Positions 6,673 through 56,762 of a DNA stretch of 64,000 nt are shown in pieces (positions within the stretch are counted from its first letter, which is position 1; the number at the start of each line of letters is the position of its first letter). A program made the translations under genes and the position numbers. The notes under the pieces were generated by a model. It saw nothing but the letters and a program-made list of their open reading frames with translations. It had not been told where the DNA came from and ran no database searches. Source of the DNA: a virus (lineage: Duplodnaviria > Caudoviricetes); IMG/VR virus record IMGVR_UViG_3300021400_000049, positions 1-64,000 of that record. One strand, 5' to 3'.

Positions 6673-8364
6673 ATGATTACAGTAAGAATTAAAAAATCTA
6701 AGTTTATGCCCGAAGATTATTCAGCGTATCTCTCTTTCCCATTCAATCAAGATGTAATTGATGCGATAAAAGAATTGAGGTATAGAAGCTGGATAAAAGG
6801 GTCAAAAGAGTGGGAGATACGAATAGAAGATTTACCATTCATGTTCAAAAGATTTCCTAACCATGACTTTGATATTAGTGGTAGATATGTTGAACTTAAT
6901 CCCTCACTTAATTTCAGTCTTGATGATTATAAGTTTAAGACTAAGTGCTTTAAGCATCAGGAAGAAGGATTTAAGTATGGAATGATGCATGAAAGATGGT
7001 TACTAGGTGATGACCAAGGGTTAGGTAAAACTAAGCAAGTTATTGATATTGCAGTAGCCAAAAAGCAGTTTTATAATTTCTCGCATTGTCTTATAGTGTG
7101 CGGAGTAAACGGATTAAAATGGAACTGGCAAAATGAGATTGCAAAACATTCTAATGAGAAAGGTTATATATTAGGTCAGAGAGTCAGAAAAAGAACAGGT
7201 GAAATGTATATAGGAAGTACAAAAGATAAATTATACGATTTAGAGCACCTGGATGAGATTGATGATTACTTTCTTATTACTAATGTAGAAACGATAAGAA
7301 ATGACGATATACTAGACTGGATTGTTAAATGGCTACATTCTGAAAGTAGTTGCAAGATAAATATGATAGCGGCAGATGAAGTACATAAAATGAAAAATCC
7401 TTCATCTCAACAAGGTCATAATTTTATCAAACTAGATGCAGATGTAAGAATAGCTCTTACAGGTACACCTCTTATGAACTCGCCACTTGATTTATATATC
7501 ATTCTTAGATGGTTAGGATATGAAAAACACGCATTTTATACATTTAAGAATTATTATGCAGTATTTGGTGGATATGGGGGATATGAAATAGTAGGCTATA
7601 AACATTTAGATGAGTTAGAAGAACAACTGCAATCTATAATGTTGAGGCGACTCAAAAAGAATGTTTTAGATTTACCAGAAAAGACATATATAGATGAATA
7701 TGTTGATATGACTGCAAAGCAGGCAATCATCTATAAGGAGATTAAAGCTGAGATTAAATCTAATATAGATATGATTTCTGTTTCACCTAATCCTCTTGCA
7801 GAAATGATAAGACTAAGACAAGCTACTGGATATACAGGTATCTTATCGAGTCAAGTACAAGAGAGCGCAAAGTTAGACAGAATGGAAGAACTCATATCTG
7901 ATGCAATAAGTAATGGTCAGCAAGTAGTAGTATTCTCTAACTGGTCACAGATAACAAATGAAGCATACAATAGGCTATCACAGAATTATAGATTAGGCAT
8001 TATAACAGGAGATACACCTGATAATCTCAGACAAGACGTAGTAAATAATTTTCAGAGTGGCACTACAGATGTGATTATTGGTACTACTGGTGCCATGGGT
8101 ACAGGACTCACATTGACTGCGGGCTCAGTAATAATCATGCTTGATGAGCCATGGAGCATGGCTTTAAGAGAACAAGCAGTAGATAGGTGTCACAGAATTG
8201 GTCAGAATAGTAATGTCACTATATACACCATTATGTGTAAAAACACTATAGATGAAAAGATACATAAGCTCGTTTATGAAAAAGGTGAACTAAGTGATTC
8301 CATTGTAGATGGTAAAATAGTTGGCATGAATAAACGAGAGTTAGTAGATTATCTTTTAGACTAA
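6673..8364 (+). CDS. SNF2-family (HARP-like) helicase
   Basis: DDQGLGKT, DEVH, TGTP, QAVDRCHRIGQ motifs; N-terminal HARP-like domain. Confidence 0.9.
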   Translation: MITVRIKKSKFMPEDYSAYLSFPFNQDVIDAIKELRYRSWIKGSKEWEIRIEDLPFMFKRFPNHDFDISGRYVELNPSLNFSLDDYKFKTKCFKHQEEGFKYGMMHERWLLGDDQGLGKTKQVIDIAVAKKQFYNFSHCLIVCGVNGLKWNWQNEIAKHSNEKGYILGQRVRKRTGEMYIGSTKDKLYDLEHLDEIDDYFLITNVETIRNDDILDWIVKWLHSESSCKINMIAADEVHKMKNPSSQQGHNFIKLDADVRIALTGTPLMNSPLDLYIILRWLGYEKHAFYTFKNYYAVFGGYGGYEIVGYKHLDELEEQLQSIMLRRLKKNVLDLPEKTYIDEYVDMTAKQAIIYKEIKAEIKSNIDMISVSPNPLAEMIRLRQATGYTGILSSQVQESAKLDRMEELISDAISNGQQVVVFSNWSQITNEAYNRLSQNYRLGIITGDTPDNLRQDVVNNFQSGTTDVIIGTTGAMGTGLTLTAGSVIIMLDEPWSMALREQAVDRCHRIGQNSNVTIYTIMCKNTIDEKIHKLVYEKGELSDSIVDGKIVGMNKRELVDYLLD

Positions 8365-8374
8365 AGGAGGTATT

Positions 8375-8638
8375 ATGGAAGGATATATCAAAATCGAAGA
8401 ACTTGCTATGCGCATTGATTCTTCCACACAGACAATTAACAACTGGTATAAGTGGAAGAGAGAGAACCCAGATAATGAGCTTGCATCTCTGTTACCTGAA
8501 TATATTCAAGAGGGTAACAGACAGACAAGATATTGGAATGTAAAAGATATATGGAAGTTCATTGAATTTAAAACCGCGATTGTTCATGGAAGAAATGGAA
8601 TAATGGGACAGTTTCGCAGAAAGAAGGAGAAAACATGA
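8375..8638 (+). CDS. Winged-HTH (MerR/Xis-like) DNA-binding protein
   Basis: IKIEELAMRIDSSTQTINNWY...RYWN. Confidence 0.55.
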   Translation: MEGYIKIEELAMRIDSSTQTINNWYKWKRENPDNELASLLPEYIQEGNRQTRYWNVKDIWKFIEFKTAIVHGRNGIMGQFRRKKEKT

Positions 8639-9075
8639 GAAAGAATTTTTTAGACACAGATACACCCGTAAAGCAAAATTTAGTGCCTTCCTCAGCGTTG
8701 GAGAAATTAGTTGAAAGTTATATCGTCAACAAAAGAAATGAAGAGGATTTCAAGAAACAGGCGTCAGCAGAGAATACTCAGATTAAGGAACTCATGCATG
8801 AGTATAACCTTACAGAAGTAGCTACTTCATTAGGAACTGCAAAGATTACAGAGCAGGAAAAAGTCACATTCATAGAAGATAAACTTATCGAGTTTCTTAA
8901 ATCTAACAATATTGCTGATAATATTGTTAAGACAAAAGAATATGTGGATTTTGATGCACTTGAATCAGCCATATATCATGGAAAAATATCTGATGAGTTA
9001 GTACAGTCTATGTCAGATTGTCAGGAGAAGAAGGTAACAACTGTTCTTAGAATATCTAAGAAGAAAGGAGAATAA
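8635..9075 (+). CDS. Hypothetical phage protein
   Basis: 146 aa ORF with RBS, ATGA coupling. Confidence 0.6.
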   Translation: MRKNFLDTDTPVKQNLVPSSALEKLVESYIVNKRNEEDFKKQASAENTQIKELMHEYNLTEVATSLGTAKITEQEKVTFIEDKLIEFLKSNNIADNIVKTKEYVDFDALESAIYHGKISDELVQSMSDCQEKKVTTVLRISKKKGE

Positions 9076-9076
9076 T

Positions 9077-9181
9077 TTGACAGTAGATCCTTTTGTAGCA
9101 GGAGTATTTTGTACTCTATTTTGTGAGATGGCAATAATAGTTATATTTGCAATATTAACATCATTCGGAGGTAAAAAATGA
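9077..9181 (+). CDS. 34-aa membrane peptide (not in ORF track)
   Basis: AAAGGAG RBS, TTG start, LTVDPFVAGVFCTLFCEMAIIVIFAILTSFGGKK. Confidence 0.5.
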   Translation: MTVDPFVAGVFCTLFCEMAIIVIFAILTSFGGKK

Positions 9182-9414
9182 GTAATGAAAATTATGTGGT
9201 TCGTGCAGTTCCCACTGAAATTACTGCTACTTCTCGTAGTGCTATACGTATTAAAGAAAATTATTATACCATTGAGGTGTCTGAAAAAAGAACTATCAAT
9301 GCAAATGATTTAGACGGCATAGATATGGACAAAGAATATGAAGCACTATTTAACGAGGTAAATGATGTTGTCGATAAACAGTGTGAGTCTATAGTAAAGA
9401 CCTTTGCTAAGTAA
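9178..9414 (+). CDS. Hypothetical protein
   Basis: 78 aa ORF with GGAGG RBS. Confidence 0.6.
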   Translation: MSNENYVVRAVPTEITATSRSAIRIKENYYTIEVSEKRTINANDLDGIDMDKEYEALFNEVNDVVDKQCESIVKTFAK

Positions 9415-9424
9415 GAAGTTCCTA

Positions 9425-9561
9425 TTTACACTATAATTTAATCATGTTATAGTGTTATTACAGACAAGATATTACTTGTTCTGTTATGAAATCTTCTTTC
9501 ATATAGTGTGTGTTCGTTTACAGAAATAGCGGGAACTTTTGTTCTCGCTATTTTCTTTTTT
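9425..9561 (+). ncRNA. sRNA unit 1 (promoter, hairpins, terminator); antisense to a phage leader
   Basis: TTTACA-N17-TATAGT (9425-9453); no ORF; terminator ATAGCGGGAAC/GTTCTCGCTAT plus T tract; 9501-9511 is the exact complement of 51370-51380. Confidence 0.7.
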
Positions 9562-9563
9562 GC

Positions 9564-9783
9564 TTTACATTTAATTTTACCTATGATATATTGATTAAGT
9601 CAGCTCACACCATATGCGTAAGCAGATGGTTATAGAAAGAAGAAGAAAGACCAACGCTTCGGCATTGAGACGAAATTCTCTTTCTGAGCTGATATGAGTC
9701 AAATCATTGGTTAGCTCCTTTGTTTTTGACGAAAGATAAGTTCCTGTGTAGAGTAATCTATGCATGGAACTTTTTCTTTTTTA
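9564..9783 (+). ncRNA. sRNA unit 2: structured RNA with anti-SD loop
   Basis: TTTACA-N17-TATATT; TCAGCTCA/TGAGCTGA stem, GTAA and TTCG tetraloops; GTCAAA/TTTGAC stem presenting TCATTGGTTAGCTCCTTTG; terminator about 9738-9783. Confidence 0.7.
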
Positions 9784-9885
9784 TTGACACACATATATCA
9801 ATATGTTATAGTATGTTTAGTCTTTAAGACTTGATACACATTTCAATTCATTGGTCGCTCCTTTGATTTAGATGTGTTATAATGT
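9784..9885 (+). ncRNA. sRNA unit 3 with anti-SD loop
   Basis: TTGACA-N17-TATAGT; ACACAT/ATGTGT stem presenting TCATTGGTCGCTCCTTTG. Confidence 0.65.
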
Positions 9886-9889
9886 GAAT

Positions 9890-10000
9890 AAGTCAGTCGG
9901 TGGGGCTATACATCAACTGATGATGTTAACCTAATATCGACTGACTATGATAAGTCCTTACGAAGATGATAGCCCATCTTAGTATAGGACTTTTCTTTTT
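9890..10000 (+). ncRNA. Kissing-loop/pseudoknot RNA ending in a terminator-like hairpin
   Basis: TGTTATAAT extended -10 at 9875-9883; AGTCAGTCG/CGACTGACT stem; GGGCTAT (9903-9909) complements ATAGCCC (9969-9975). Confidence 0.55.
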
Positions 10001-10015
10001 GTAAGGAGAGATTAT

Positions 10016-10198
10016 ATGCGAGAAATTGATAAAACATTTCTTATGTTATTTAAAAACATAAGAATCGTGGAAAATGAGCAGGGTGGATATACTGCTTACT
10101 CAACAAATGGAGTAAATGCTATTCCAAATAAAGAGATTGTAGGACTTGTAAAAAAATATCAAGAACTACTTATAAATGAGTTAATTAAAGAAAATTGA
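10016..10198 (+). CDS. Hypothetical protein
   Basis: 60 aa ORF with AAGGAG RBS. Confidence 0.5.
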   Translation: MREIDKTFLMLFKNIRIVENEQGGYTAYSTNGVNAIPNKEIVGLVKKYQELLINELIKEN

Positions 10199-10202
10199 TA
10201 TA

Positions 10203-11174
10203 ATGGAGGTTAATATTATGGGGATATTTAGGGTAGAAAAATCAGAAAATTTTACAATAATGAGCAATTATCATTTTAGAGAAAAGAAAATGTCTTTAAA
10301 AGCAAAAGGTCTTTTATCTTGGATGCTCTCACTTCCAGATAACTGGGATTACTCAATAAAAGGTATGTGCAAATGTCATAAAGATGGAGAAGATGCTATA
10401 ACTTCCGCATTAAAAGAATTACAGAGTTTTGGATATCTTGAAGTAGTAAAGTTAATGCCTGGAACAATCATAGAAAACTCAGATGGTAGTACATACACAT
10501 TAAATCGTATAGATTACGACTATGTGATACATGAAAAACCTATAAATACTCAAGACACTGATTTTCAGTGTACTGAAAATCAAGCTACTGAAAATCAAGC
10601 TACTGAAAACCCCTACCAAATAAATACTAAAAAAACAAATACTAAAAAAACAAATACTAACCAAAAAAGCACCGGCTCCGGTGCTTCTTCTAAAAATCAT
10701 TCTCAGGTCTACAAGAAAAGAGAAGTTCTAAATGATGATTTACAGAGTGGAAAAGATATAGATAAACAAAAGAGTGACCAGAGAAAATCTCCAAAAGACA
10801 AATTCAAAGATGAGTGTTTAGATATTATAGATAAAGAGTATTCAGACGAGACCAAAGATTTACTTATAGAATACTTTGATTTTGTTAGTTCTGTTCCAGA
10901 AGATAAAGACAATCTATGTAAGCGTGTTAAGACTGTAAAAGCATGGAGACATAAGTTAGACAGACTAAATGAGCTTGTAAAAGATGGCTATGACCCGATA
11001 GCTATTATTCAGCAAAGTTTGGATAAGAAGCAGTATGTATTTTATCCACTACAGTCTGTACAAAAGAAATCTAAAGGAAAAGAAACGCTCAGTGATAAAC
11101 TTGTAGGTACAGATTTAGAGGATGCAAAAAGAAGATACCAAGAAGCAATAGATAATGGGGAGGAGTTTTTCTAA
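10203..11174 (+). CDS. Phage replication initiator (wHTH replisome organiser)
   Basis: FTIMSN...SLKAKGLLSWMLSLPDNW...ALKELQSFGYL; internal iteron-like repeats; followed by loader ATPase. Confidence 0.8.
   Translation: MEVNIMGIFRVEKSENFTIMSNYHFREKKMSLKAKGLLSWMLSLPDNWDYSIKGMCKCHKDGEDAITSALKELQSFGYLEVVKLMPGTIIENSDGSTYTLNRIDYDYVIHEKPINTQDTDFQCTENQATENQATENPYQINTKKTNTKKTNTNQKSTGSGASSKNHSQVYKKREVLNDDLQSGKDIDKQKSDQRKSPKDKFKDECLDIIDKEYSDETKDLLIEYFDFVSSVPEDKDNLCKRVKTVKAWRHKLDRLNELVKDGYDPIAIIQQSLDKKQYVFYPLQSVQKKSKGKETLSDKLVGTDLEDAKRRYQEAIDNGEEFF
10562..10660 (+). repeat. Iteron-like 15-bp tandem repeats (candidate origin)
   Basis: TACTGAAAATCAAGC x2.6 and AAATACTAAAAAAAC x2.6 inside the initiator gene. 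Confidence 0.6.
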
Positions 11175-15395: not shown

Positions 15396-16042
15396 TTCAC
15401 GCTTGCGCAAAACGAAAGTGGTATGTAGATGAATTTTTAGTACCATCCATGCTTAAACAAGGTATAGAACGAGAAAATATATTAGTCTATAATGATAGCT
15501 CTAAAGAAGGCTGCCTTAAATCGTTTTTATCATCATATGATAATATTGCATCTGTAGTTGGTGGTATATGGCATTTACAAGATGATGTAATAATAAGCTC
15601 AAACTTTAAGGAGATAACAGAGACATATGATAAAGGTATAGTATGTGGATTCTGTAGTTTTTATAGCGAAGATGTTCCTTTTGGTATAAGACCTATCAGC
15701 GATATTTGGTATTCTTTTCCATGTATACGAATACCAAATATGGTATTTAAGAATTTTGTTAATTGGGTAAAATCTCCAGAAATACAGAATAAATATAGAG
15801 TATATATTGAACAGAATAAATTTGTGGATATGCTATTTAGAATATTTATAATACAGACTTATCCTGATAAGTTGGTACATAATCTGTGCCCTAACATAGT
15901 TGATAATGTTGACTATCTGTTAGGTGGCTCAGTGATAAATTATATACGGGATAAAGAGCCTTTATCATTATATTTTAGTGAGCAAAATTTAATAGAGGAA
16001 CTTAAACATTCCATAGATAATTCAGTTTACAGACAGAAATAA
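15380..16042 (+). CDS. GT-A-fold glycosyltransferase-like protein
   Basis: IWHLQDDVII DxD-like motif; adjacent to two GT2 genes. Confidence 0.55.
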   Translation: MSKYLIHACAKRKWYVDEFLVPSMLKQGIERENILVYNDSSKEGCLKSFLSSYDNIASVVGGIWHLQDDVIISSNFKEITETYDKGIVCGFCSFYSEDVPFGIRPISDIWYSFPCIRIPNMVFKNFVNWVKSPEIQNKYRVYIEQNKFVDMLFRIFIIQTYPDKLVHNLCPNIVDNVDYLLGGSVINYIRDKEPLSLYFSEQNLIEELKHSIDNSVYRQK

Positions 16043-17641: not shown

Positions 17642-17735
17642 AGCACAGTAACTCAGTTGGCTAGAGGAAGTTATGAGTCTTTTGGTAAGCGTTTCAACTC
17701 ATAGTGTGTCATGGGTTCGAGTCCCATCTGTGCTA
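17642..17735 (+). tRNA. Atypical tRNA-like RNA with enlarged anticodon arm (Lys-UUU-like reading possible)
   Basis: Acceptor AGCACAG/CTGTGCT, D arm ACTCAGTTGGCTAGAG, T arm ATGGG-TTCGAGT-CCCAT; 94 nt; no encoded CCA. Confidence 0.6.
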
Positions 17736-18025
17736 TTAGTTGTTCATGGTCAGAGCAACTAATCTAGTAGTATTATTTTTCATGGTATGATTAACGCTAC
17801 AAACAACTTATTTATGTCTACTTTGCTCTATTACATATCAGATAGAGCGGTAACCGTAAACTACATCTTGTGGTTAAGATGTTTTTGGATACACAAATGC
17901 AAAACACATTGGTCTAAATCGTTTTGTTGTTCAAGTACAACTCCTGACATAAATTGATTAGCTAAGTTGTAGGTGTCGAACTAAACCGCGACATGGTTTA
18001 TAAGCTAATACTAAAGGAGAATATT

Positions 18026-40888: not shown

Positions 40889-40963
40889 TTCCTGTTGATG
40901 TTTATTTATAGGTATATTACCTTATACTTGTAAACGAAAACATAGTTTTTGAAAGGAGAAATT

Positions 40964-43900
40964 ATGCAGGTATTATTTGACGAAAGGGATTATGAACCAT
41001 TAAAAGAAGGAGAGACTTACGAAGGCAAGTTTGTAATTATTACACCTGAGTTCTTCAAGCCAGAGTTTAGAAATGCAAAATATCAGTTGTTTCATGCAGA
41101 AGCAGGATTTGGATGTGATCCTAGTAAGATAGGTAATGCAGTGTTTGGTAAAGATTGTGAGGAGACTTACAGACAGGAGAGATACAATATTCTCGGTGTA
41201 GCTAAGGAGTCCGCAATTCGTGAGTGGGAAAGAACATACCACATGAGTAGAGAGGTTTTCTACAGAAAGGAGAATGATTGATGGAAGAATTTACAACAAC
41301 ATTTTGGCAAGATTTCACAATAGCTGACGCCTTCGGTGCGTCAGCTATCAAAGACACCTTTAAGAGAGCGTTTGAAGAATGGAAGTCAGACTACAGATAC
41401 CTTACTGATTTAGTAATGGTAGTAAATCATAAGTGCTGGCAGCATTATGAGGAAGGCAATACAGAGATTAGCCAGATTTATTCAGATTTATATTATAAGG
41501 CTGATGCTTATGCCTGCGAGAACTTAAAGGGTGAAGAGTTGAGTTACTATTTTAGGGTAACAGATTGAAAGGGAAATATTATGAAATCTGAAATTAAGTG
41601 GAGAGATAATCTTAAAAGTATAGGTACTAATATTCCTAGGGTTGTTCCTAATGAAATCTACATGGCTATGAGTTCTATCGAATTTTATACAAAGACAATC
41701 AAGGCATTAGAAAGAGTGGGATGGAAATACTCGGGACGAGATGGAATGATTACTGGTATACATAACGAAAGGGCTATACAGATAGATATTGTGGAACAAT
41801 ATAATGACCATATGTACTTAGTAAAGTTCTGGAAAGACGGCAGTGTACATCTATATTTTAGAGATGAATACCTTAAAAACAGATATGGAAGGAGAGTATT
41901 GATATGAGTAAACCATATAGCAGAGATTATGAATCGGAACTATTAGATTTAGTCAGAGAGAACGGAATAACAGATGAGGACTTAGTGTCCTCATTCCTGT
42001 GTTATTTCAGTTCAGATGATACCTGTGCTTGTCTTGAAGATGTGTGCAGAACCTATGATATAGAGTATGAGGAAGAATAACTTCCTGTTGATAGGATAGC
42101 TGAAATATGCTATCCTATTTTTGTAAACAAAAACACACAAATGTTTGAAAGGAGAATATTATGGCAGTAAGGATTATGAAGAGGTGTTTCTGCTGTGGCA
42201 GAGAATCATCATTGGAGATTACTGATGAGGTAAATAAGAGGTATGAGATGTATCTCAATGGAGTAGGATATATACAAGATATTCCACTACCAGCAGACCA
42301 GAGAGAATTTTTAAAGACAGGTATGTGTCTCAGTTGTCAGGAGTTAATCTTTGCAGATCCTGATGAAGAATAAATTCCTATTGATAAGGTAGCACCTTAG
42401 TGCTACCTTATTGTTGTAAACAAAAACACATTATGAAAGAGAGGTACCAAATGAAACGAGTTATTTATTTACCAGATGAGCTTAACGAGAATAAGCATAT
42501 CCTCAAAGAAGTCTATGAGGGACATGGTGTATACAGAAGATACACACCCTCAGGATATCCAGTACATCAAGAGTGGGCAATAGTAAGAGAAAGTGATGGC
42601 TTCACTATTGTTACAGAGTCCTATAATAGTCTTGACCGTGTAGATATGCTGGATGCTATTGATAACTACAAAGAAACAGGTAAATATGGTTTTACCTGCT
42701 TACAGACACACAAAGGTAAAGAGCATGGCTACTACAATGTACATAGAGGAGGTAATTTAAAGCTATGAGTTTTTGTGATTTCCATACAATGCAGACAAGG
42801 AGCGGTAAAGTATTCACCCCACTTTCTACAAATGATGTGGTAGATGTAATCAGAGATGAAATGGGTGATGAGATAGCTGATTACCTCGATGAGTGTTTTT
42901 CAGATACTGCCTTAGAACAAGATACTGCCTATACATTATTACAGGATGAGTTTGCAAGTTACGAGCAGGAGAACGAGAACTGGCATAACTTTGTAGATGA
43001 ACTGTCAGAAGAAATAGAGGCAGTTAGAAGGAAGATAGAGGATAACAAATTAACAAAAGCCAAAATATCCATAGAGCTATATAAAATATATGAAAAGATG
43101 AGAAAGGAACTTTAATATGGACGAATTACAACTTATGGTACAGGCATTAGCCGGTACAATCGAAGATAATACGGCAGAGCTTAGAAAGATGAAGTCAGCA
43201 GGTAAACAGGATACAAAGATGTATATCCATAAGTTAGGAGAGATTTCAGCTTATGAGGATGTACTTAATATGGTCATATGGAGAATCAATCAGCTTTCTA
43301 ATAAGTGAGGTGAATGATATGTGGTACTTAGTATTATTTATCCTCTTTTGTATATTCTTTCTTTAATAAGTTCCTGTTGAACTGGTATCTCCTACATGAT
43401 ATCCTATTCTTGTAAAGAAAACAAGAACACATATCTTGAAAGGAGATACCAAAATGACTAAAGAGGAAATTAAGCAGTACGAGAACAAGGAACCCATAGG
43501 TATATACGCACTCAGTAATTGGGGTGGCATAGAGATTTTAGATATTCTCTATGGTATTGATGATTATGTGGTAGTAAGATACTATGGTAAGTCCTATCAT
43601 AGAGTAAAGATTCACTATGGTGTAAACCATAGTTCATTCAGAATAGGCAGATTGACAATACGCCTTGATGAGTGTATGAGAGTGTGAGGTAAAACCATGA
43701 AAGAGTATATTATAGTAGGGGATACAAAGTCTTTTAAGGATTGTCTTATCACTGTAGTGAGGGGTGATAGAAATGCCGCAGAGAAAGTGTTGGAGCGTAT
43801 GCTATATGCTCCAACAGAAAATGACTATAAACTTATGGAAGGTCATAAGAATCTGAGAATCAAAGAGGTTAAAGAAAAAGACCAGTGGTGGAATGATCCG

Positions 43901-44519: not shown

Positions 44520-47500
44520 ATGTTAGTAACATCAATAGAAATCAGAGAGTGGTTAGATAAACAGATTGAGGCCTATCACACATCCTTAGAGAAGTTGATA
44601 GTCAATGATGATGGAGATTACCTTAGTAACATCGGTGTTCAGGACAGAGGTATTCATCTCTGCTCAGATGCAGTAAGGTTTATTGCAGACAGACTTGGTA
44701 TTGACCTCTGTGTAACATTAAGAAAGAGGGATACGGAGAATCCGTATGAGATTTTCATTCTGTATAAGGGTGAGAAGTTCTTCGGAATTGAAACTGAGGA
44801 AGAGTATCAGGAGAAAGGGGCAGTGGTATAAACCACTGCTCTTTAAAGAGGATAATGCTATGATGAAGTTTGTAACATCCTGTATAGATGAAAAGACAGG
44901 ATATGAGATGGTTTTATCAGAAGTCAGCTATAATGTAGCTATGGATTGGCTACAAAGGCAGTGTGAGAAGTATTTCAAGGAGATATTTAGAACCGAGAAT
45001 AATGGTACAGATGATGTGTGGATATATGTAGGTACACCTAAGAAAGATGTAAATCCTATGACAGGAGAGGTAGATGTGTGGTATACAAATCAAGTTATAT
45101 TCCACTATGACGAGAGCAGAGGATATTTGATGCAGGAGTAAGATATGAATTTTGAGGATTTTTTACAGAACCTATACGGTATTTCAAGTATGTCCAATGA
45201 TTATGAAGAAAGGGTTGTAGTTAATACCCAAGAAGATGATTGGGTAGTAGACACTGCAATAGTTACAGATAGGAGCTGGACATATGAGACCGCAGTAATG
45301 AGTCCACATTTCAGAAATAATAAATGGATAATAGTCGGTAAAGCAGATACCGAAGAGGATGCAGTTAAAGTGCATGAACAATGGGTTGATATGATGAGAA
45401 ATGATCCTAGGGCATTATGGGATATATATGAGGAGAAAATATTTATACACGATTGATTATAAGCTACTGGAACTTAATATTCCAGTAGCTTTTATTTTAC
45501 CCATATGCTACCTTATATTTGTAAACAAGAACACATAGTTACGAAAGGAGACCACTATGATACAGATTGAGGTTAAGTCAGAGAATGTATTCGGAGATGT
45601 GAGATTTTCTTATTGCCAGGTAGAAGATATTCCAACGCACTTCGCAAGATTAAAGTTTGAAGGCTGGGATAATATACTATCAACCCATCTTGTAGATGAG
45701 TTTGGCAGACTACTTAATGAAGATGGACAGTTAGTGTGAAAGGAGACCATTATGAAAGTTTACAGAGATAAGGCAACAGGTAAGAAGTTATATCCCGTAT
45801 GCTCATGGGAAAGAAATCAGCATAAGCTCTATAATGCCATAGATAGGGCACATAATGCAGTTACCGATTTGTATGAAGACAAGTCGGCTACAATAGAGCA
45901 GATTGATAAGGCAGAAGCGTGGGTTCAAGAAGTAGAGAGGTTGACCAGTATATTCGATAGTCATGTAGCACCTAATGGTGTAGTTTATGCACTATGGGAA
46001 GATGGTCAGAAAATAAAGGACATCATATACGGTTATGATTGTAGGCATGACCAGCTTGAGGCAGAAAGGAGAATGTGATATGTGCCAATATCCATGTAGA
46101 AACTGTGTTTATTATAAAGAGTGCGGTGAAAGCACAAGAACAATGCCATGTAATGGCAGAATGACGAAGAGTCAGCAGAAAGGGCTAAAAGCAAGCCTGA
46201 TTGTAATGGATGAGTTTCCTTTAAAGACAAGAGAGGAACTAATAAGAGAAGGAGAAAGAGAACAGGCAAGAAGAGCCTTCTATGAGGATTGAAAGGAGAC
46301 CATTATGTGTAGAAACTGCGAGAACTGCCAATATTGTAAAGAGGACTTTGAATATGATGATTTTGGTAATACCTTCGATTACTGCAAGTGTGTACTCACC
46401 AATGAGCTGATTGATTGTTCAGAAGCAGAGCATTGTAAGGATTATACAGAGTAGTCCATAAAGTGTTAGGAATCGACTCCTAACACTTTTATTTTATTTT
46501 GATATAAAGTATCAACGAGCAGATAAAAACGTCAGGAAAGAGCAGGAAATGAGTTGAAATATTCCTGTTGTCAGGTATATACCTGTATGCTATCCTATAT
46601 TTGTAAACAAGAACAGAGAGTAAGTTTCATGGTGCCAAGTATATCTTCGCTATGGATGCTGAAATCGCCATATATGAAAGGAGAGAATATGATACTGAAT
46701 GATGGATTTTACCCGTCAAAAGAGAGCGGGGTTGTACTAGAAAGATTTGAAGATATGTGGACAAAACACTCGATGTCCGATAAGTATGCAAGGGATATTG
46801 TGACTACCAGCAATAGTAATATTCAGACCTACTCTGATGCCTTTATGTCAGAGATGGCAGGGGATGAGATATTCTTTGCAGACTGGATAAGATATAATGA
46901 GGGATTACTACCTTACATCAAGAAAGCCGCTGATACAGTGCGTTGGCTACATGAGAATGGATATACAGAGTACAAAGTCAATATGCAGTCCGGGATAATA
47001 AAATAAAGCGCCTGGATTAGATTTTTATCTTATAGTTGATAAATTGCACACATTGAAAGGAGAAAGTTAAAAATGGCAACAATGATTAAATATGGAACAA
47101 AAGCAGGAGAAGACCTCATACATGATATGAATTACAGACACCCTAAAGGAAATACCCTTTATGATGTGTACGGTAAAGTTTCTTCAAAGAAGGCGAAAAG
47201 TTGGGAGAAAATCAGAGATGATTGCAACTACCTCAAAGGTAGACGCCTTCATATTATAGGAGCATCAAGTTATGGGTATTCCTGCATATATGCTTATCCT
47301 ATATATGACCATAGAGATGAGAGCATTATATCCATGATGATTAGAAAGGAAACAAAGGCGAATACCTATGAGATGGAAGTGCCTATAGATGAATATGATA
47401 AGAGAATTATACACAAAGGAGAATAAGGAAGATGTTGATATATGATGTAAACCGATATTCAGAGGATGTATGTAAGTTACCTGATACCATAGTATTACCT

Positions 47501-49523
47501 GATGATTTAGAAAAGGACGATGTTGATGCCACAGTCAATGCCATAATAGAGTTTGTAGAGAAGATGTATGGCAGAAAACCGAGCGCATTTGGTTGTAGAG
47601 CAAATGGCCAGATTATAAGATACAGAGCATGAATCAAATAAGTTCCAGTTGAAAAGGTAGCACCTGAGTGCTACCTTTTTCTTGTAAACAAAAACATTTC
47701 TTGAAAGAGAGGACCTATTATGAAGTACATTACCGAAAACATTACAGAGATTGAAAAGCTGGCCGTATCTATGATGCTCTTTGCTACTTGCGGTGAAGAT
47801 GAAGATACAATGGCAAATGCCGAAGTATCAAAGACTTCCCCTAACACATTCCACATTGAATATGATGTAGCAAATCCTTTTAATGGAATATCCCTTACAG
47901 TAGAGATTCACCGAGAGAGCTATGCTAACGGACAATCGTCAGTATTCCACTACAACGTCATATCTAGTGCCTATGGTGATACCGGAGAGTTCACACTGAC
48001 AATCGAATAAGTTCCTGTTGATAGGATAGCACCTCTGTGCTATCCTATACTTGTAAATAAGAACACATATTGAAAGGAGAACCATTATGTTGATGATGTT
48101 AGAAGAAGTATTCCCTGGGCAGAATAGAATGAATGAATATCCTATGGGAGAAGAGCAAGAGTTCCAGAGCATGAAAGAGTTTATATCCTGGAACATAGAG
48201 CAGATTGACGAAATCCTGAAAGATGCTCCAGAGGAGCAGATAACAAAAGATAAGCTGACCAACGGTGAGTATTCAGTCTATGAAAAAGATGGCGTGGTGT
48301 ATGTGAGAGTGGAGGTGATAGCATGATTACAAGAGCAAGATTGGAAATGGTGAATGCCAATAACAAGAAAGTGTTTGGCAGAAGTATGTGGGGCTATTGT
48401 GAATTATCCGATTTAATAGTGAAGTTTTTCAGAATAATGCCTGATTATGTGGACCAAAGTAAATGTAACCTCAGGGTTTATGATGTGAGTCATTGATATT
48501 CCAGTTGATAAGGTACTACATATGTAGTACCTTATTCTTGTAAAGAAGAACACATACATTGAAAGGAGAACCAATTATGAGAGACATTGATATGAAATGG
48601 AGTACCGCAAGAGCTACATACGACCTTATAGTAGATGGAGAGTGGTATGCAGAGGGCAATTATGAACAGATGGATGATATGGCAAGAGCCATGAGATTAG
48701 CTGATATTGAAGAGGAAGAAGCCAGATGTTCTCAGCCTAGTGATGATTACTACGGTGATGCAGATGATTGGGATGAGTGCTGACTTATCCCATATAGAAA
48801 GGAAACCATTATGGACAAGATAGTTTTGAAACTGAAAGGCAAACTAATAAAGGCCGATGTGATAGATTTTTCAGACAGATTAAAGTACGGCGAGATGTTA
48901 ACCTATGAAGATGCAGATGATGATTGGGAGATATTCTCAGTAAAAGGAACAAAATTCTATGTAGCCTATCAGCAGTGTTCTGCCTACGATAGGGTGTGAA
49001 AGGAGACCGATATGAGTGAAAACATGGTTCTTATAATGATTGATGAGTGCGGAGATGAGCGGGAATATGACCGTTATACTGTAGGAGATGATTTAGATGA
49101 GGATTATCTCGAAATGTGGCAAGAAATGAAAATTTCCAAAGCCAGAGAAGATTATCCAGAAGCCCGTAGATTTTACTTTGAAGATAGGCGCAATTGGAAT
49201 AGCATGATAAATGCCATGATTAGAGATGATGAGGGATATGACCCTTGGGAAGATGAAGAGGTGCCAGTATGAATATCATAAAGCAGAATAAGAAAAGGCA
49301 GTTAGTAGAAGAATATGGACCATACATGAATAAGAGATATGCCATATATGACACAATGGGCATAATGGAAGTATGGTTCTCAGACAAACAAAAAGCGTTG
49401 TCCCATTGGGAGAAATATAAAAACGCGGAGACTTGGGCAGAAAAGAGAGAGCGGTATAAACAAGAATTATTAGCCACAATAGAAAGAGGTGGTCCAGAAT
49501 TAGATGAACTACCATTTATCTGA
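44520..49523 (+). other. Early-region small ORFs, part 2 (44520-44831, 44860-45141, 45145-45456, 45557-45739, 45752-46078, 46080-46292, 46305-46454, 46689-47006, 47073-47426, 47432-47632, 47720-48010, 48087-48326, 48577-48783, 48811-48999, 49012-49272, 49269-49523)
   Basis: Short hypothetical ORFs, most with AAAGGAG-(N)ACCA-ATG RBS. Confidence 0.65.
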
Positions 49524-49930: not shown

Positions 49931-50260
49931 ATTATCCCCGGCGCCTGGAAACGAAAATTGATTCAAATCAAGAAATTTTAGTCCACTAAAGTGCACCTTG
50001 CACAAACGGCACCAGGCCACTAGCTTTGCCCCTTGTGGCTAAATTTTGGCGGGCGTCACTATTAGGGAAAAGTGCCGAAAAATACGGGGTAGGTATCCGA
50101 TTTTTAAAAGCCCGCCAAAACCTATTCGTCAAATTGCACAAAAACCACTAGAGGCCTCTGACCGAACTCCGATAAGACGTATTCCTGTTGTAAGGTTATA
50201 TAGGCTAGATTACCATAAAATAAAAAACACACACATAAATATGAAAGAGAGGATACCAAT

Positions 50261-50611
50261 ATGACAAGAAATGCATTAGTATTAGAGTCTGCCAAAGAAT
50301 ATGCAAGAAAGGGTGCATGGAAGACCGCAGACAGAACATTACATGAAGTTATGGTAGATCCATATAACTTTGATGATGAAGAACAGGAGATGGAAGCAAG
50401 AGAGTTACAGGTAGAGATAACTTCTCATGTAGCCCTCACTTATGAGCAACTCATGGATTTAGCCCTTAAGCATTATAACAAGGGCGGGGATAGTACATAT
50501 GAATGTTGGGAAGAAAGAGATTACCAAGAACATGGACCTATGAGTAAGTATGAAGCACTCCGTATGTTTGCTATGGATTATGATATAGAAAGGGATAGAA
50601 TGGGTTGGTAA
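50261..50611 (+). CDS. Hypothetical early protein
   Basis: Behind TTCCTG promoter, GAGAGG RBS, followed by terminator 50628-50660. Confidence 0.65.
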   Translation: MTRNALVLESAKEYARKGAWKTADRTLHEVMVDPYNFDDEEQEMEARELQVEITSHVALTYEQLMDLALKHYNKGGDSTYECWEERDYQEHGPMSKYEALRMFAMDYDIERDRMGW

Positions 50612-51112: not shown

Positions 51113-51246
51113 ACACACAGGTGGTGTGGTGGTATGTGAGCTTCGCTCACAGAGGATCTGCTTGCACACAATGTAATAGAATAAAGTGTTATTGTTTACA
51201 ATTAAATAATAAACAATGTTGTTGTTTACATTTTTTAAAATTGTAC

Positions 51247-51275
51247 TTGTAAACAATAACAACTTATGATAATAT
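51247..51275 (+). promoter_or_regulatory. sigma70-type promoter with TTGTAAAC/GTTTACA boxes upstream
   Basis: TTGTAA-N17-TAATAT with TG extension; AT-rich UP-like region. Confidence 0.6.
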
Positions 51276-51398
51276 GATATTGAGCTTCAATAAAGCGTGA
51301 GCTTTGAAGCGTGTTCTATCTGTACTTTAACAAACATAGTTAGCTACTAACTATCATATGGAAACGTAAACACACTATATCGAAACGAGGTAACGAAA

Positions 51399-52016
51399 AT
51401 GGAAAAAACAACTATTCTCAGTAACTACAAACTCGCACAAGCTACTTTTGACAACACTAATAAGCGTGTTGCGATGACTGACAAGGAGCTTGCAACGCTT
51501 AGAGCGATATGCAAAACTAAGACTTTCGGTCTTGTATCGTTAATTGACGATATAGACAACATTGCAACGTTCAATGGCGATTATGATTGCAAGCTTGCTC
51601 AGAGCGGTAACGCAAAAGAGCACACACTCGTGTCTATATGGAGTCGTAACGCTATTAAACACGTTACTAAAAAGAGTGACTATAGAGACTTTGGTGTACG
51701 TTTTCACGTTGATAAGCTTGCTCAGCTTTACAAAAATAAAGACTTTGCAAAGCTGATAGAAAATAGCAACGTGCAAGTGTATTCTCACAGAGACGGTCTT
51801 GAAATAAGATTTACGTTTAAGTCACTTGCTGACTGTCTCAAGTTTGTTGCTGATATAGACAACGCAACAAAAGAGACTCAAAGCAAGACTCAGACTCAAA
51901 AAGAGACAAAGTCTCAGAGCAAAGCAAAAGAGCAAAGCAAGACTCAGAGCAAAGCAAAAGAGACAAAGTCTCAGAGTAAAAGCAAGACTCTAAAAGAGAC
52001 TCAGAAAAAAGCGTAA
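51399..52016 (+). CDS. Proline-free 205-aa protein with basic QSK/KET low-complexity tail (putative immediate-early regulator)
   Basis: GAGG RBS; ORF has no CC dinucleotide; function inferred only. Confidence 0.75.
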   Translation: MEKTTILSNYKLAQATFDNTNKRVAMTDKELATLRAICKTKTFGLVSLIDDIDNIATFNGDYDCKLAQSGNAKEHTLVSIWSRNAIKHVTKKSDYRDFGVRFHVDKLAQLYKNKDFAKLIENSNVQVYSHRDGLEIRFTFKSLADCLKFVADIDNATKETQSKTQTQKETKSQSKAKEQSKTQSKAKETKSQSKSKTLKETQKKA

Positions 52017-52101: not shown

Positions 52102-52135
52102 AAAGCACTAGCATTTTTTGCTAGTGCTTTTTTGT
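52102..52135 (+). terminator. Intrinsic terminator
   Basis: AAAGCACTAGC/GCTAGTGCTTT plus T tract. Confidence 0.8.
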
Positions 52136-52202
52136 TTGCATTAAAGCGTTACATACCACCCAGCATCTTTGTTAGCATATGCTAACACGATTGCTGAGTG
52201 AG

Positions 52203-52410
52203 GGGTCTTGCTCCCGTAGGTCAGCATTTTTTATAATGACCGTGTCTCACTTATAAAGCCCGTGGTCTTTCTCCCACAGGAGGCTGCTTTTTATAAAGAC
52301 CGTGTCACTTAGGTTTTATTTATAATGACCGTGCCACTCAGATTATTCTTTCCAGTAAGAGGCTTTCTGTCTAAAATACCTGGCCACATATAATCTAAAG
52401 ACCGTGAAAC
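52203..52410. repeat. TTATAAWGACCGTG direct repeats (candidate pac/terminase-binding site)
   Basis: Copies at 52231, 52251, 52291, 52320, 52395 (partial); two longer units spaced 60 bp. Confidence 0.6.
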
Positions 52411-52488
52411 ACTCAGCATCGGTCCAGGAACTTGCTACTGATTACATTTTAGTGTTATAGTATGTTTACAATAATAAGGAGAATAACT

Positions 52489-56557: not shown

Positions 56558-56720
56558 GAATGTGGGTGAGATGTTGACTCGGTCGCATTTTCCCCTCCTA
56601 GGGCCCAGAGGAGTTTTCCTCTGGGTTGAGGTAATAACTCGATATGAGATTATTATAAATTCGTCAATGCGGTGCGACATTTAACCACCCGCACATTCCA
56701 GCGTAGAGCGTGACTACGCA
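56558..56720 (+). ncRNA. Structured RNA between portal and scaffold genes
   Basis: Promoter TTTACA-N17-TATAAT (56529-56557); nested stems GAATGTG/CACATTC, TTGAC/GTCAA, GTCGCA/TGCGAC, CCCAGAGG/CCTCTGGG. Confidence 0.55.
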
Positions 56721-56762
56721 CTTACAAATTAAACGGATATAAGAATGTAGAAGGAGAAAAGT

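Follow-up and report, generated by a model that had tools for sequence, protein, structure and literature searches.

Introduction

To our knowledge, only few RNA regulators by which phages control phage genes are known from experiments, and most of them are cis-antisense RNAs or the operon-embedded c4 RNAs of temperate coliphages. The OOP RNA of lambda and the sar RNA of P22 are small phage RNAs which are transcribed opposite their target, are perfectly complementary to it and silence a phage gene. The c4 antisense RNA of P1 and P7 (immI; Rfam C4) has a length of about 77-105 nt and acts in trans on phage mRNA; it pairs by short blocks around the ribosome-binding site and blocks translation, and its specificity follows from co-variation of c4 RNA and target sites between related phages (PMC12197685, PMC8546580). 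A protein with a related task is the endoribonuclease RegB of T4, which brings about a class-wide inactivation of early mRNAs at a GGAG Shine-Dalgarno (SD) sequence (PMC3014915).

The locus described here belongs to an uncultured rumen phage of about 74 kb. The first 64 kb of its 74,461-bp virus record were analyzed and are called the window in the following. The locus, sRNA1, appears to encode a free-standing RNA reaching from promoter to terminator which is antisense to a common family of leaders. The closest known system is c4, with the same logic in another genomic layout: c4 is processed from the operon of its target, whereas sRNA1 has its own promoter and terminator and its predicted targets are located 31-42 kb away in other transcription units. 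Unlike c4, sRNA1 is complementary to a whole leader family, and the host of the phage is probably Gram-positive; a module for lysogeny was not noticed in the window. The two-site pairing of c4 is resembled by a two-block pairing of sRNA1 around a target hairpin in two types of leader (type B and G001, see below). The Rfam C4 model gave no match at gathering score on the whole window and was not among the matches with E <= 1 on 9380-10030. Compared with OOP and sar, sRNA1 is encoded 42 kb off on the strand of the target and pairs imperfectly, but silencing by base pairing would be alike. The proposed outcome also resembles that of RegB, since many phage early mRNAs with a common SD context would be inactivated at the ribosome-binding site; RegB, however, is a protein nuclease reading GGAG with the help of S1, whereas sRNA1 is an RNA whose specificity would come from leader complementarity. 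We regard this parallel as one of logic, not of homology.

With moderate confidence we favor the reading that sRNA1 is an independently transcribed non-coding RNA antisense to the phage's own leaders, a multi-target anti-leader and anti-SD repressor which appears to have originated from an inverted cassette.

Results

The whole record (G000) carries an exact terminal direct repeat of 107 bp, in agreement with a complete genome of about 74.35 kb from a circular assembly. Nearly all genes in the window are located on the + strand, and the GC content is 33-40%. The terminase, SPP1-type portal and capsid genes show 25-39% identity to siphophages of Gram-positive gut bacteria. Among deposited phage genomes no close relative was found, and a megablast search of the sRNA1 locus and of the locus of the predicted target, ORF 51399, against 50,697 phage records gave 0 matches. 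Two further RNA features of the window were recorded: a GP20-a RNA motif (Rfam) at 56659-56760 between the portal and scaffold genes, with 69.7 bits compared to a gathering score of 47.2, and a tRNA-Thr(GGU)-like gene of 88 nt at 17649-17736. The latter exceeds the length of a class I tRNA and may contain an insert or an extended anticodon arm.

The region 9415-10015 is a gap of about 600 bp without an ORF, in which three TG-extended promoters are each followed by a terminator of their own. The promoter of the first unit, sRNA1 (9419-9453, + strand), consists of a TTCCTA box abutting the -35 element TTTACA (9425-9430), a 17-nt spacer and the TG-extended -10 element TATAGT (9448-9453). It reached 10/12 in a consensus scan, with the TG, and the box, the -35 and the extended -10 are almost invariant across six relatives. 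From these signals we infer transcription of a non-coding RNA of about 105 nt (9460-9566, + strand), with a fold energy of -31.6 kcal/mol (z -5.2 versus shuffles). Two metatranscriptome runs of the probable source sample yielded nothing that could be placed on 9100-10300, and no RNA run was listed as containing the locus, which counts neither for nor against transcription. The predicted transcript starts with a 5' stem-loop (9460-9484), which is conserved in part and shows some compensatory pairs. It is followed by the interaction region (9488-9526), unpaired in the consensus structure, which comprises an anti-SD motif, a variable anti-leader stretch and then GUUUACAG. An intrinsic terminator (9523-9566) with a 14-bp stem at 9523-9554 and a U tract closes the unit. 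The anti-SD motif, CUUCUUUC at 9493-9500, is near-invariant; the variable stretch includes 9501-9511, the segment singled out in a preliminary description of this DNA. In the consensus fold, an open center (alignment columns 34-79, about 45 columns) separates the 5' hairpin from the terminator. In the window, L001 and L005, part of the anti-SD motif is taken up by a local hairpin, which counts against the proposed pairing.

Compensatory changes affect 9 of the 18 predicted pairs of the consensus structure and are mostly located in the terminator stem. A conserved ORF was not found in sRNA1, as the window's short ATG frame (6 codons) is missing from G005 and G001. Searches with Rfam gave no family at gathering score and only weak matches far under the threshold (sraA, L20 leader and others). 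Since no gene lies opposite 9460-9566, sRNA1 is not a cis-antisense RNA of the OOP or sar type, and its targets would be located elsewhere on the same strand. An ORF-less unit enclosed by its own promoter and a Rho-independent terminator, as observed here, is characteristic of trans-encoded base-pairing sRNAs.

Pattern and covariance-model searches restricted sRNA1 to a narrow clade, with seven sequence variants in the window, G005 (75 kb, complete), G001 (59 kb), L001, L005, L036 and G009. Complete but more distant relatives (G006 and G010-G015) lack it. A pattern scan of metagenomes gave 26 loci, five of which are true copies (four already in the set and one near-duplicate), the rest being chance matches. 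The sequence CTTCTTTCAT is invariant in six of the variants and reads CTCTTTTCAT in G009. The flanks of sRNA1 diverge to about 70% identity, with an invariant promoter core. As promoter, single-stranded center and terminator are kept in seven variants and the terminator shows compensatory changes, sRNA1 looks like a real gene.

The two neighboring units, at 9564-9782 (unit 2) and 9784-10002 (unit 3), are each enclosed by a TG-extended promoter and a terminator and fold strongly (z -5.5 and -6.3). They have the motif CAUUGGU..GCUCCUUUG in common, which is antisense to the typical SD-to-AUG stretch of the cassette translation initiation regions (TIRs) described below (GGAG..ACCAAUG). An exact-pattern test of this motif against the cassette TIRs was not significant by itself. 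Judged from these sequences, the three units would share out the start region of an mRNA, with sRNA1 on the 5' leader up to and including the SD and units 2 and 3 on the stretch from the SD to the AUG.

The proposed target is preceded by a sigma-70-type promoter without a TTCCWG box (51246-51278, + strand; TAAACA-17-TATGAT, 9/12). By eye, TTGTAA-17-TAATAT with a TG fits too, and the promoter is conserved in L007. Starting from the putative transcription start, the 5' leader (51285-51398) contains hairpins at 51285-51309 and 51336-51354 and then an unstructured 3' part. In three type-A leaders both hairpins are preserved by double changes, and in the consensus fold the leader is unpaired from GUAAAC to the AUG, including the SD and the predicted sRNA1 site. 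ORF 51399 (51399-52016, + strand) encodes 205 aa with a tail rich in Lys, Thr, Ser and Gln. Its product belongs to no Pfam or PHROGs family, its 18 homologues are all metagenomic, and a search with its AF2 model (pLDDT 63) gave no Foldseek match at E <= 0.001. A strong terminator at 52102-52130 (52102-52140 in its widest limits), with a 12-bp stem and a T run, closes the unit, so that the predicted target is a single gene with its own promoter and terminator and not the operon assumed in the preliminary description.

Around the -35 of this promoter (51183-51261), the leader-family motif TGTAAACAA was found by nhmmer on both strands as an inverted repeat, which looks like an operator. The motif is also located at the predicted +1 of every cassette and may therefore be read by a DNA-binding regulator. 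Downstream of the ORF 51399 terminator and ahead of the packaging-operon promoter (52432-52461) we observed four or five repeats containing GACCGTG (52230-52415). They may represent a site for packaging (pac) or terminase recognition; in G009 the repeats at this place are of another sequence, CCTGGACACAGCCTGG.

The starting point for this target was that 9501-9511 and 51370-51380 are exact reverse complements of each other. We confirmed these 11 nt and also the pairing of the flanks. The bare match was nevertheless rejected as evidence because shuffling the 67-nt sRNA core with its dinucleotides preserved still gave an 11-nt complement somewhere on the + strand in 439 of 500 trials (88%); in 124 of the 500 one lies at most 60 nt upstream of a start codon. 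The extended duplex is more informative. It connects sRNA 9490-9523 with the predicted binding site at 51350-51392 and comprises an 11-bp helix (51370-51380), a GAAA block (51382-51385) and the GAGG SD (51387-51390), which faces CUUCUUUC (RNAduplex, ViennaRNA duplexfold). The pairing had been described as ending just 5' of the SD; as RNAduplex extends from -49 to -7 and the GAGG is located inside the duplex, the predicted pairing covers the SD. The duplex has an energy of -28.1 kcal/mol, compared to a shuffle mean of -12.8 (sd 3.0), and this value was reached by 1 of 150 shuffles. A seed that is single-stranded in the consensus and complementary to the target TIR beyond chance, as found here, is a further property of trans-acting sRNAs.

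Although the match of sRNA1 with the ORF 51399 leader is well beyond that of shuffles, it is neither exclusive nor top-ranked, the lack of a top rank being a point which the preliminary description had named as speaking against it, with position 7 of 128 TIRs in RNAduplex and 9 of 128 with accessibility (dimer partition function). By the latter method the G005 orthologue ranks 14/125 and the G001 analogue 1/85. Six leaders at 40.9-48.6 kb score better in RNAduplex, all of them belonging to cassettes on the + strand defined by a TTCCWG box, a TAYCYT -10 element and a leader which starts with TTGTAAAC and ends with GAAAGGAG. The strongest predicted duplex was obtained for the leader at 42117-42163 (-34.1 kcal/mol), whose L043 orthologue ranks 1/49 with the L001-type sRNA. 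It is followed by the leaders at 40924-40966 (-31.6), 48534-48579 (-31.4), 45515-45559 (-30.8), 48047-48089 (-29.6) and 43406-43456 (-28.1 kcal/mol). The leader of the gene at 50261 (50224-50263, + strand), which contains a 10-nt exact block, ranks 2/128 with accessibility, and its orthologue in G005 3/125. Several cassette leaders at 40.9-50.3 kb are thus equal or stronger predicted partners than ORF 51399.

For these comparisons the 39-nt center and dimer partition functions were used, because the 67-nt core was too noisy in RNAduplex, with coding sites down to -40 kcal/mol. A whole-genome RNAduplex scan with the 39-nt center gave a mean of -13.8 (sd 3.6) over about 7,400 windows; within the same genome the cassette leaders took ranks 1-4, 6 and 8, and the site at 51358 rank 9. 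The best TIR (-34.1) lies beyond the mean of the shuffle-best values (-24.1), and none of 150 shuffles reached it. The mean of nine cassette TIRs (-28.7 versus -13.6 for shuffles; 0/150) and the energy of the 9th-best of the 128 TIRs likewise lie beyond all 150 shuffles. Among the TIRs predicted to bind sRNA1 best, promoter-defined cassettes are over-represented both in the window (p = 4e-4) and in G005 (p = 5e-3), and in L043 they occupy ranks 1, 2 and 4. The energy rankings are indecisive in so far as unrelated TIRs and coding sites show similar energies; the purine (A/G)-rich coding strand pairs readily with any U/G-rich RNA, which explains the high noise. Taken together, the predicted antisense partners of sRNA1 form a whole leader family, and the leader of ORF 51399 would be one of them.

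This complementarity may partly reflect common descent. Using a profile of nine cassette leaders, the best match outside the cassettes was the minus strand of 9491-9526 (E = 0.05); in G005 the cassette profile does not pick up the sRNA1 locus. The minus strand of 9485-9570 aligns with the cassette at 42082-42165 over a stretch that includes the promoter-spacer palindrome, the leader and the SD (z = 6.5, 0/300 shuffles). sRNA1 therefore looks like an inverted cassette and appears to be a reused copy of a cassette promoter and leader, in which the promoter palindrome seems to have become the sRNA1 terminator and the leader the antisense seed. As sRNA1 is an inverted homologue of the leader family, its complementarity is partly inherited and alone no proof of function.

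One could go further and regard the locus as an inert relic of the inverted cassette, with leftover promoter and terminator features and complementarity as mere inherited homology. The alignment with cassette 42082 from palindrome to SD and the chance level of the exact 11-mer would agree with this. A relic, however, would not be expected to co-vary with a target (see below), nor to keep an invariant + strand promoter core and a compensatory terminator across seven variants while the flanks fall to about 70% identity, and a start codon is missing from the minus strand where the cassettes have theirs. We consider a relic very improbable.

The ORF 51399 leader was also compared between related phages. 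In both the window and G005, the orthologous leader contains the longest stretch genome-wide that is exactly complementary to the sRNA core (11 nt at 51370 and 12 nt at 15890, respectively), and the sequences differ: CUAUAU pairs with AUAUAG in the window and CAAUAU with AUAUUG in the 75-kb relative. The A-U pair 9505/51376 corresponds to a U-A pair in G005, where a bulged C is lost as well. In the type-B leaders (L006, L043, L134 and L137), AUUUUGUA is present in place of UAUAU and a hairpin is inserted before the SD. The L001-type sRNA carries the mirror of this element, UACAAAAU, as a 7-nt replacement, and the pairing picks up at GAAAGAGG past the hairpin. In the cassette leaders of L043 and L006, AUUUUGUA was not found. 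L001 and L006 were assigned to one genome because an ENA contig of 41.7 kb is near-identical to both: over the sRNA locus its identity with L001 is 99.97%, and over the stretch between the interior of the target ORF and the portal gene its identity with L006 is 99.7%. As this contig starts 103 nt inside the ORF and lacks the leader, the type-B leader sequence was taken from L006.

In G001 (L040-L042) the position of ORF 51399 is occupied by a Lys/Thr-rich gene of 153 aa (reverse complement of 8250-9021, promoter TTGCAA-17-TATAAT), which has at most marginal similarity to ORF 51399 (E = 0.028). Its leader pairs in two blocks with the sRNA1 of G001, with a perfect GAAAGAAG opposite the motif, and ranks 1/85. 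As far as the sequences tell, the gene is a different one in G001, but the sRNA1-complementary leader was kept.

When sRNAs were compared with leaders in a matrix, nine of the ten leaders paired best with the sRNA of their cognate type. A hand count from this matrix showed that, of the 24 permutations possible with the four genome pairs, the identity assignment is the best; one of these pairs was joined via the contig without leader, and one involves the non-homologous gene. ORF 51399 or its analogue is the sole gene in the cognate-advantage top 10 in all three complete or near-complete genomes, as judged by coordinate mapping. G009 has a variant of sRNA1 but contributes no sRNA/leader pair because the contig ends ahead of the target region. 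In IMG/VR, the partner leaders predicted for L005-type and G009-type sRNAs were not found; the matches were all due to chance, as in the GC-rich L228. The preliminary description had proposed conservation in relatives as a check, and here it held: the complementarity survives sequence change on both partners, and the link was kept in four phage lineages, a small sample of four cognate pairs. Such co-variation of sRNA and target across relatives (n=4 cognate pairs) is again in line with the trans-sRNA class. Within this set of sequences, the ORF 51399 leader is the partner whose pairing is demonstrably kept by two-sided changes.

It could be argued that only the cassette leaders are working targets of sRNA1 and that the ORF 51399 match is a by-product of membership in the same leader family (GUAAAC ... 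ACAC ... GAAAG.AGG). The homology of sRNA1 to an inverted cassette, the six cassette leaders scoring above ORF 51399, the enrichment of cassettes among the top TIRs of two genomes and their ranks 1, 2 and 4 in L043 are all compatible with this. The lineage-specific changes, however, follow the ORF 51399 leader, as AUUUUGUA is absent from the cassettes of L043 and L006 and yet mirrored in the L001-type sRNA; moreover, this leader provides the longest exact match in two genomes, and ORF 51399 is the only orthologous gene in the cognate-advantage top 10 of all three. We therefore consider a restriction to cassettes unlikely.

The same data bear on a function of the units at 9419-10002 in cis, either as tandem promoters or attenuators for the replication operon from 10016 or as origin-region transcripts, with functionless complementarity in trans. 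The units are located downstream of a SNF2 helicase gene and directly upstream of an operon which starts with a 60-aa ORF and a gene for an HTH_36 protein, and antitermination could allow read-through of the tandem terminators. This leaves unexplained why the stretch between the hairpins is complementary to a leader 42 kb away, with double changes in four lineages, and why the anti-SD motif is near-invariant. A role purely in cis appears improbable to us.

Discussion

According to the favored reading of sRNA1 as an antisense repressor of phage leaders, the pyrimidine motif CUUCUUUC would mimic the anti-SD of 16S rRNA and face the SD of the target leaders, and the lineage-variable stretch would face the leader upstream of the SD. 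The duplex would cover the SD and the 30S landing zone and block translation initiation, and the duplexed mRNA would probably be exposed to double-strand-specific cleavage. Since the binding site and the SD are predicted to be single-stranded, occlusion and repression would be the simplest outcome, and an SD which is open in the free leader makes activation less likely.

5'-end protection by sRNAs is known in Firmicutes, and sRNA1 could in principle pair with the leaders and activate or stabilize them, for example by shielding the 5' end from a 5'-exonuclease. In the cassettes and in G001 the pairing does extend to the predicted extreme 5' end of the mRNA. On the other hand, a free leader with an unpaired SD leaves nothing to unmask, and the SD is located inside the duplex in all four lineages. 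To activation we give the least weight of all the readings considered here.

The promoters allow a suggestion about the timing of the proposed repression. A TTCCTG box is common to the sRNA1 promoter and the cassettes, and the ORF 51399 promoter is without it. This pattern fits a switch in which a later regulon silences an earlier gene, but does not show it.

A more far-reaching idea draws on the analogy with c4 in the heteroimmunity of P1 and P7. The fast-evolving, co-varying pair of the variable sRNA1 stretch and the ORF 51399 leader would be a specificity determinant in the competition of related phages and, together with sRNA2 and sRNA3, part of an RNA-only system for early shut-off and exclusion in a virulent-looking phage of a Gram-positive host. 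This we regard as quite unlikely and put forward as speculation. If it were true, a super-infecting relative with the same leader type would have its early cassettes and its sigma-70-driven gene of the ORF 51399 type silenced by the sRNA1 of the resident phage, and escape of the leader followed by a matching change of the sRNA would give rise to the leader types A, B and C.

The case presented here is that of a phage RNA which seems to have evolved jointly with one distant leader: both partners show substitutions and a mirrored 7-nt replacement, and in one lineage even the gene downstream of the leader is a different one. If the favored reading as an anti-leader repressor is true, the leader and sRNA types could set cross-regulation between related phages, and a phage RNA could shut off a class of mRNAs, a job which is done in T4 by the RegB protein.
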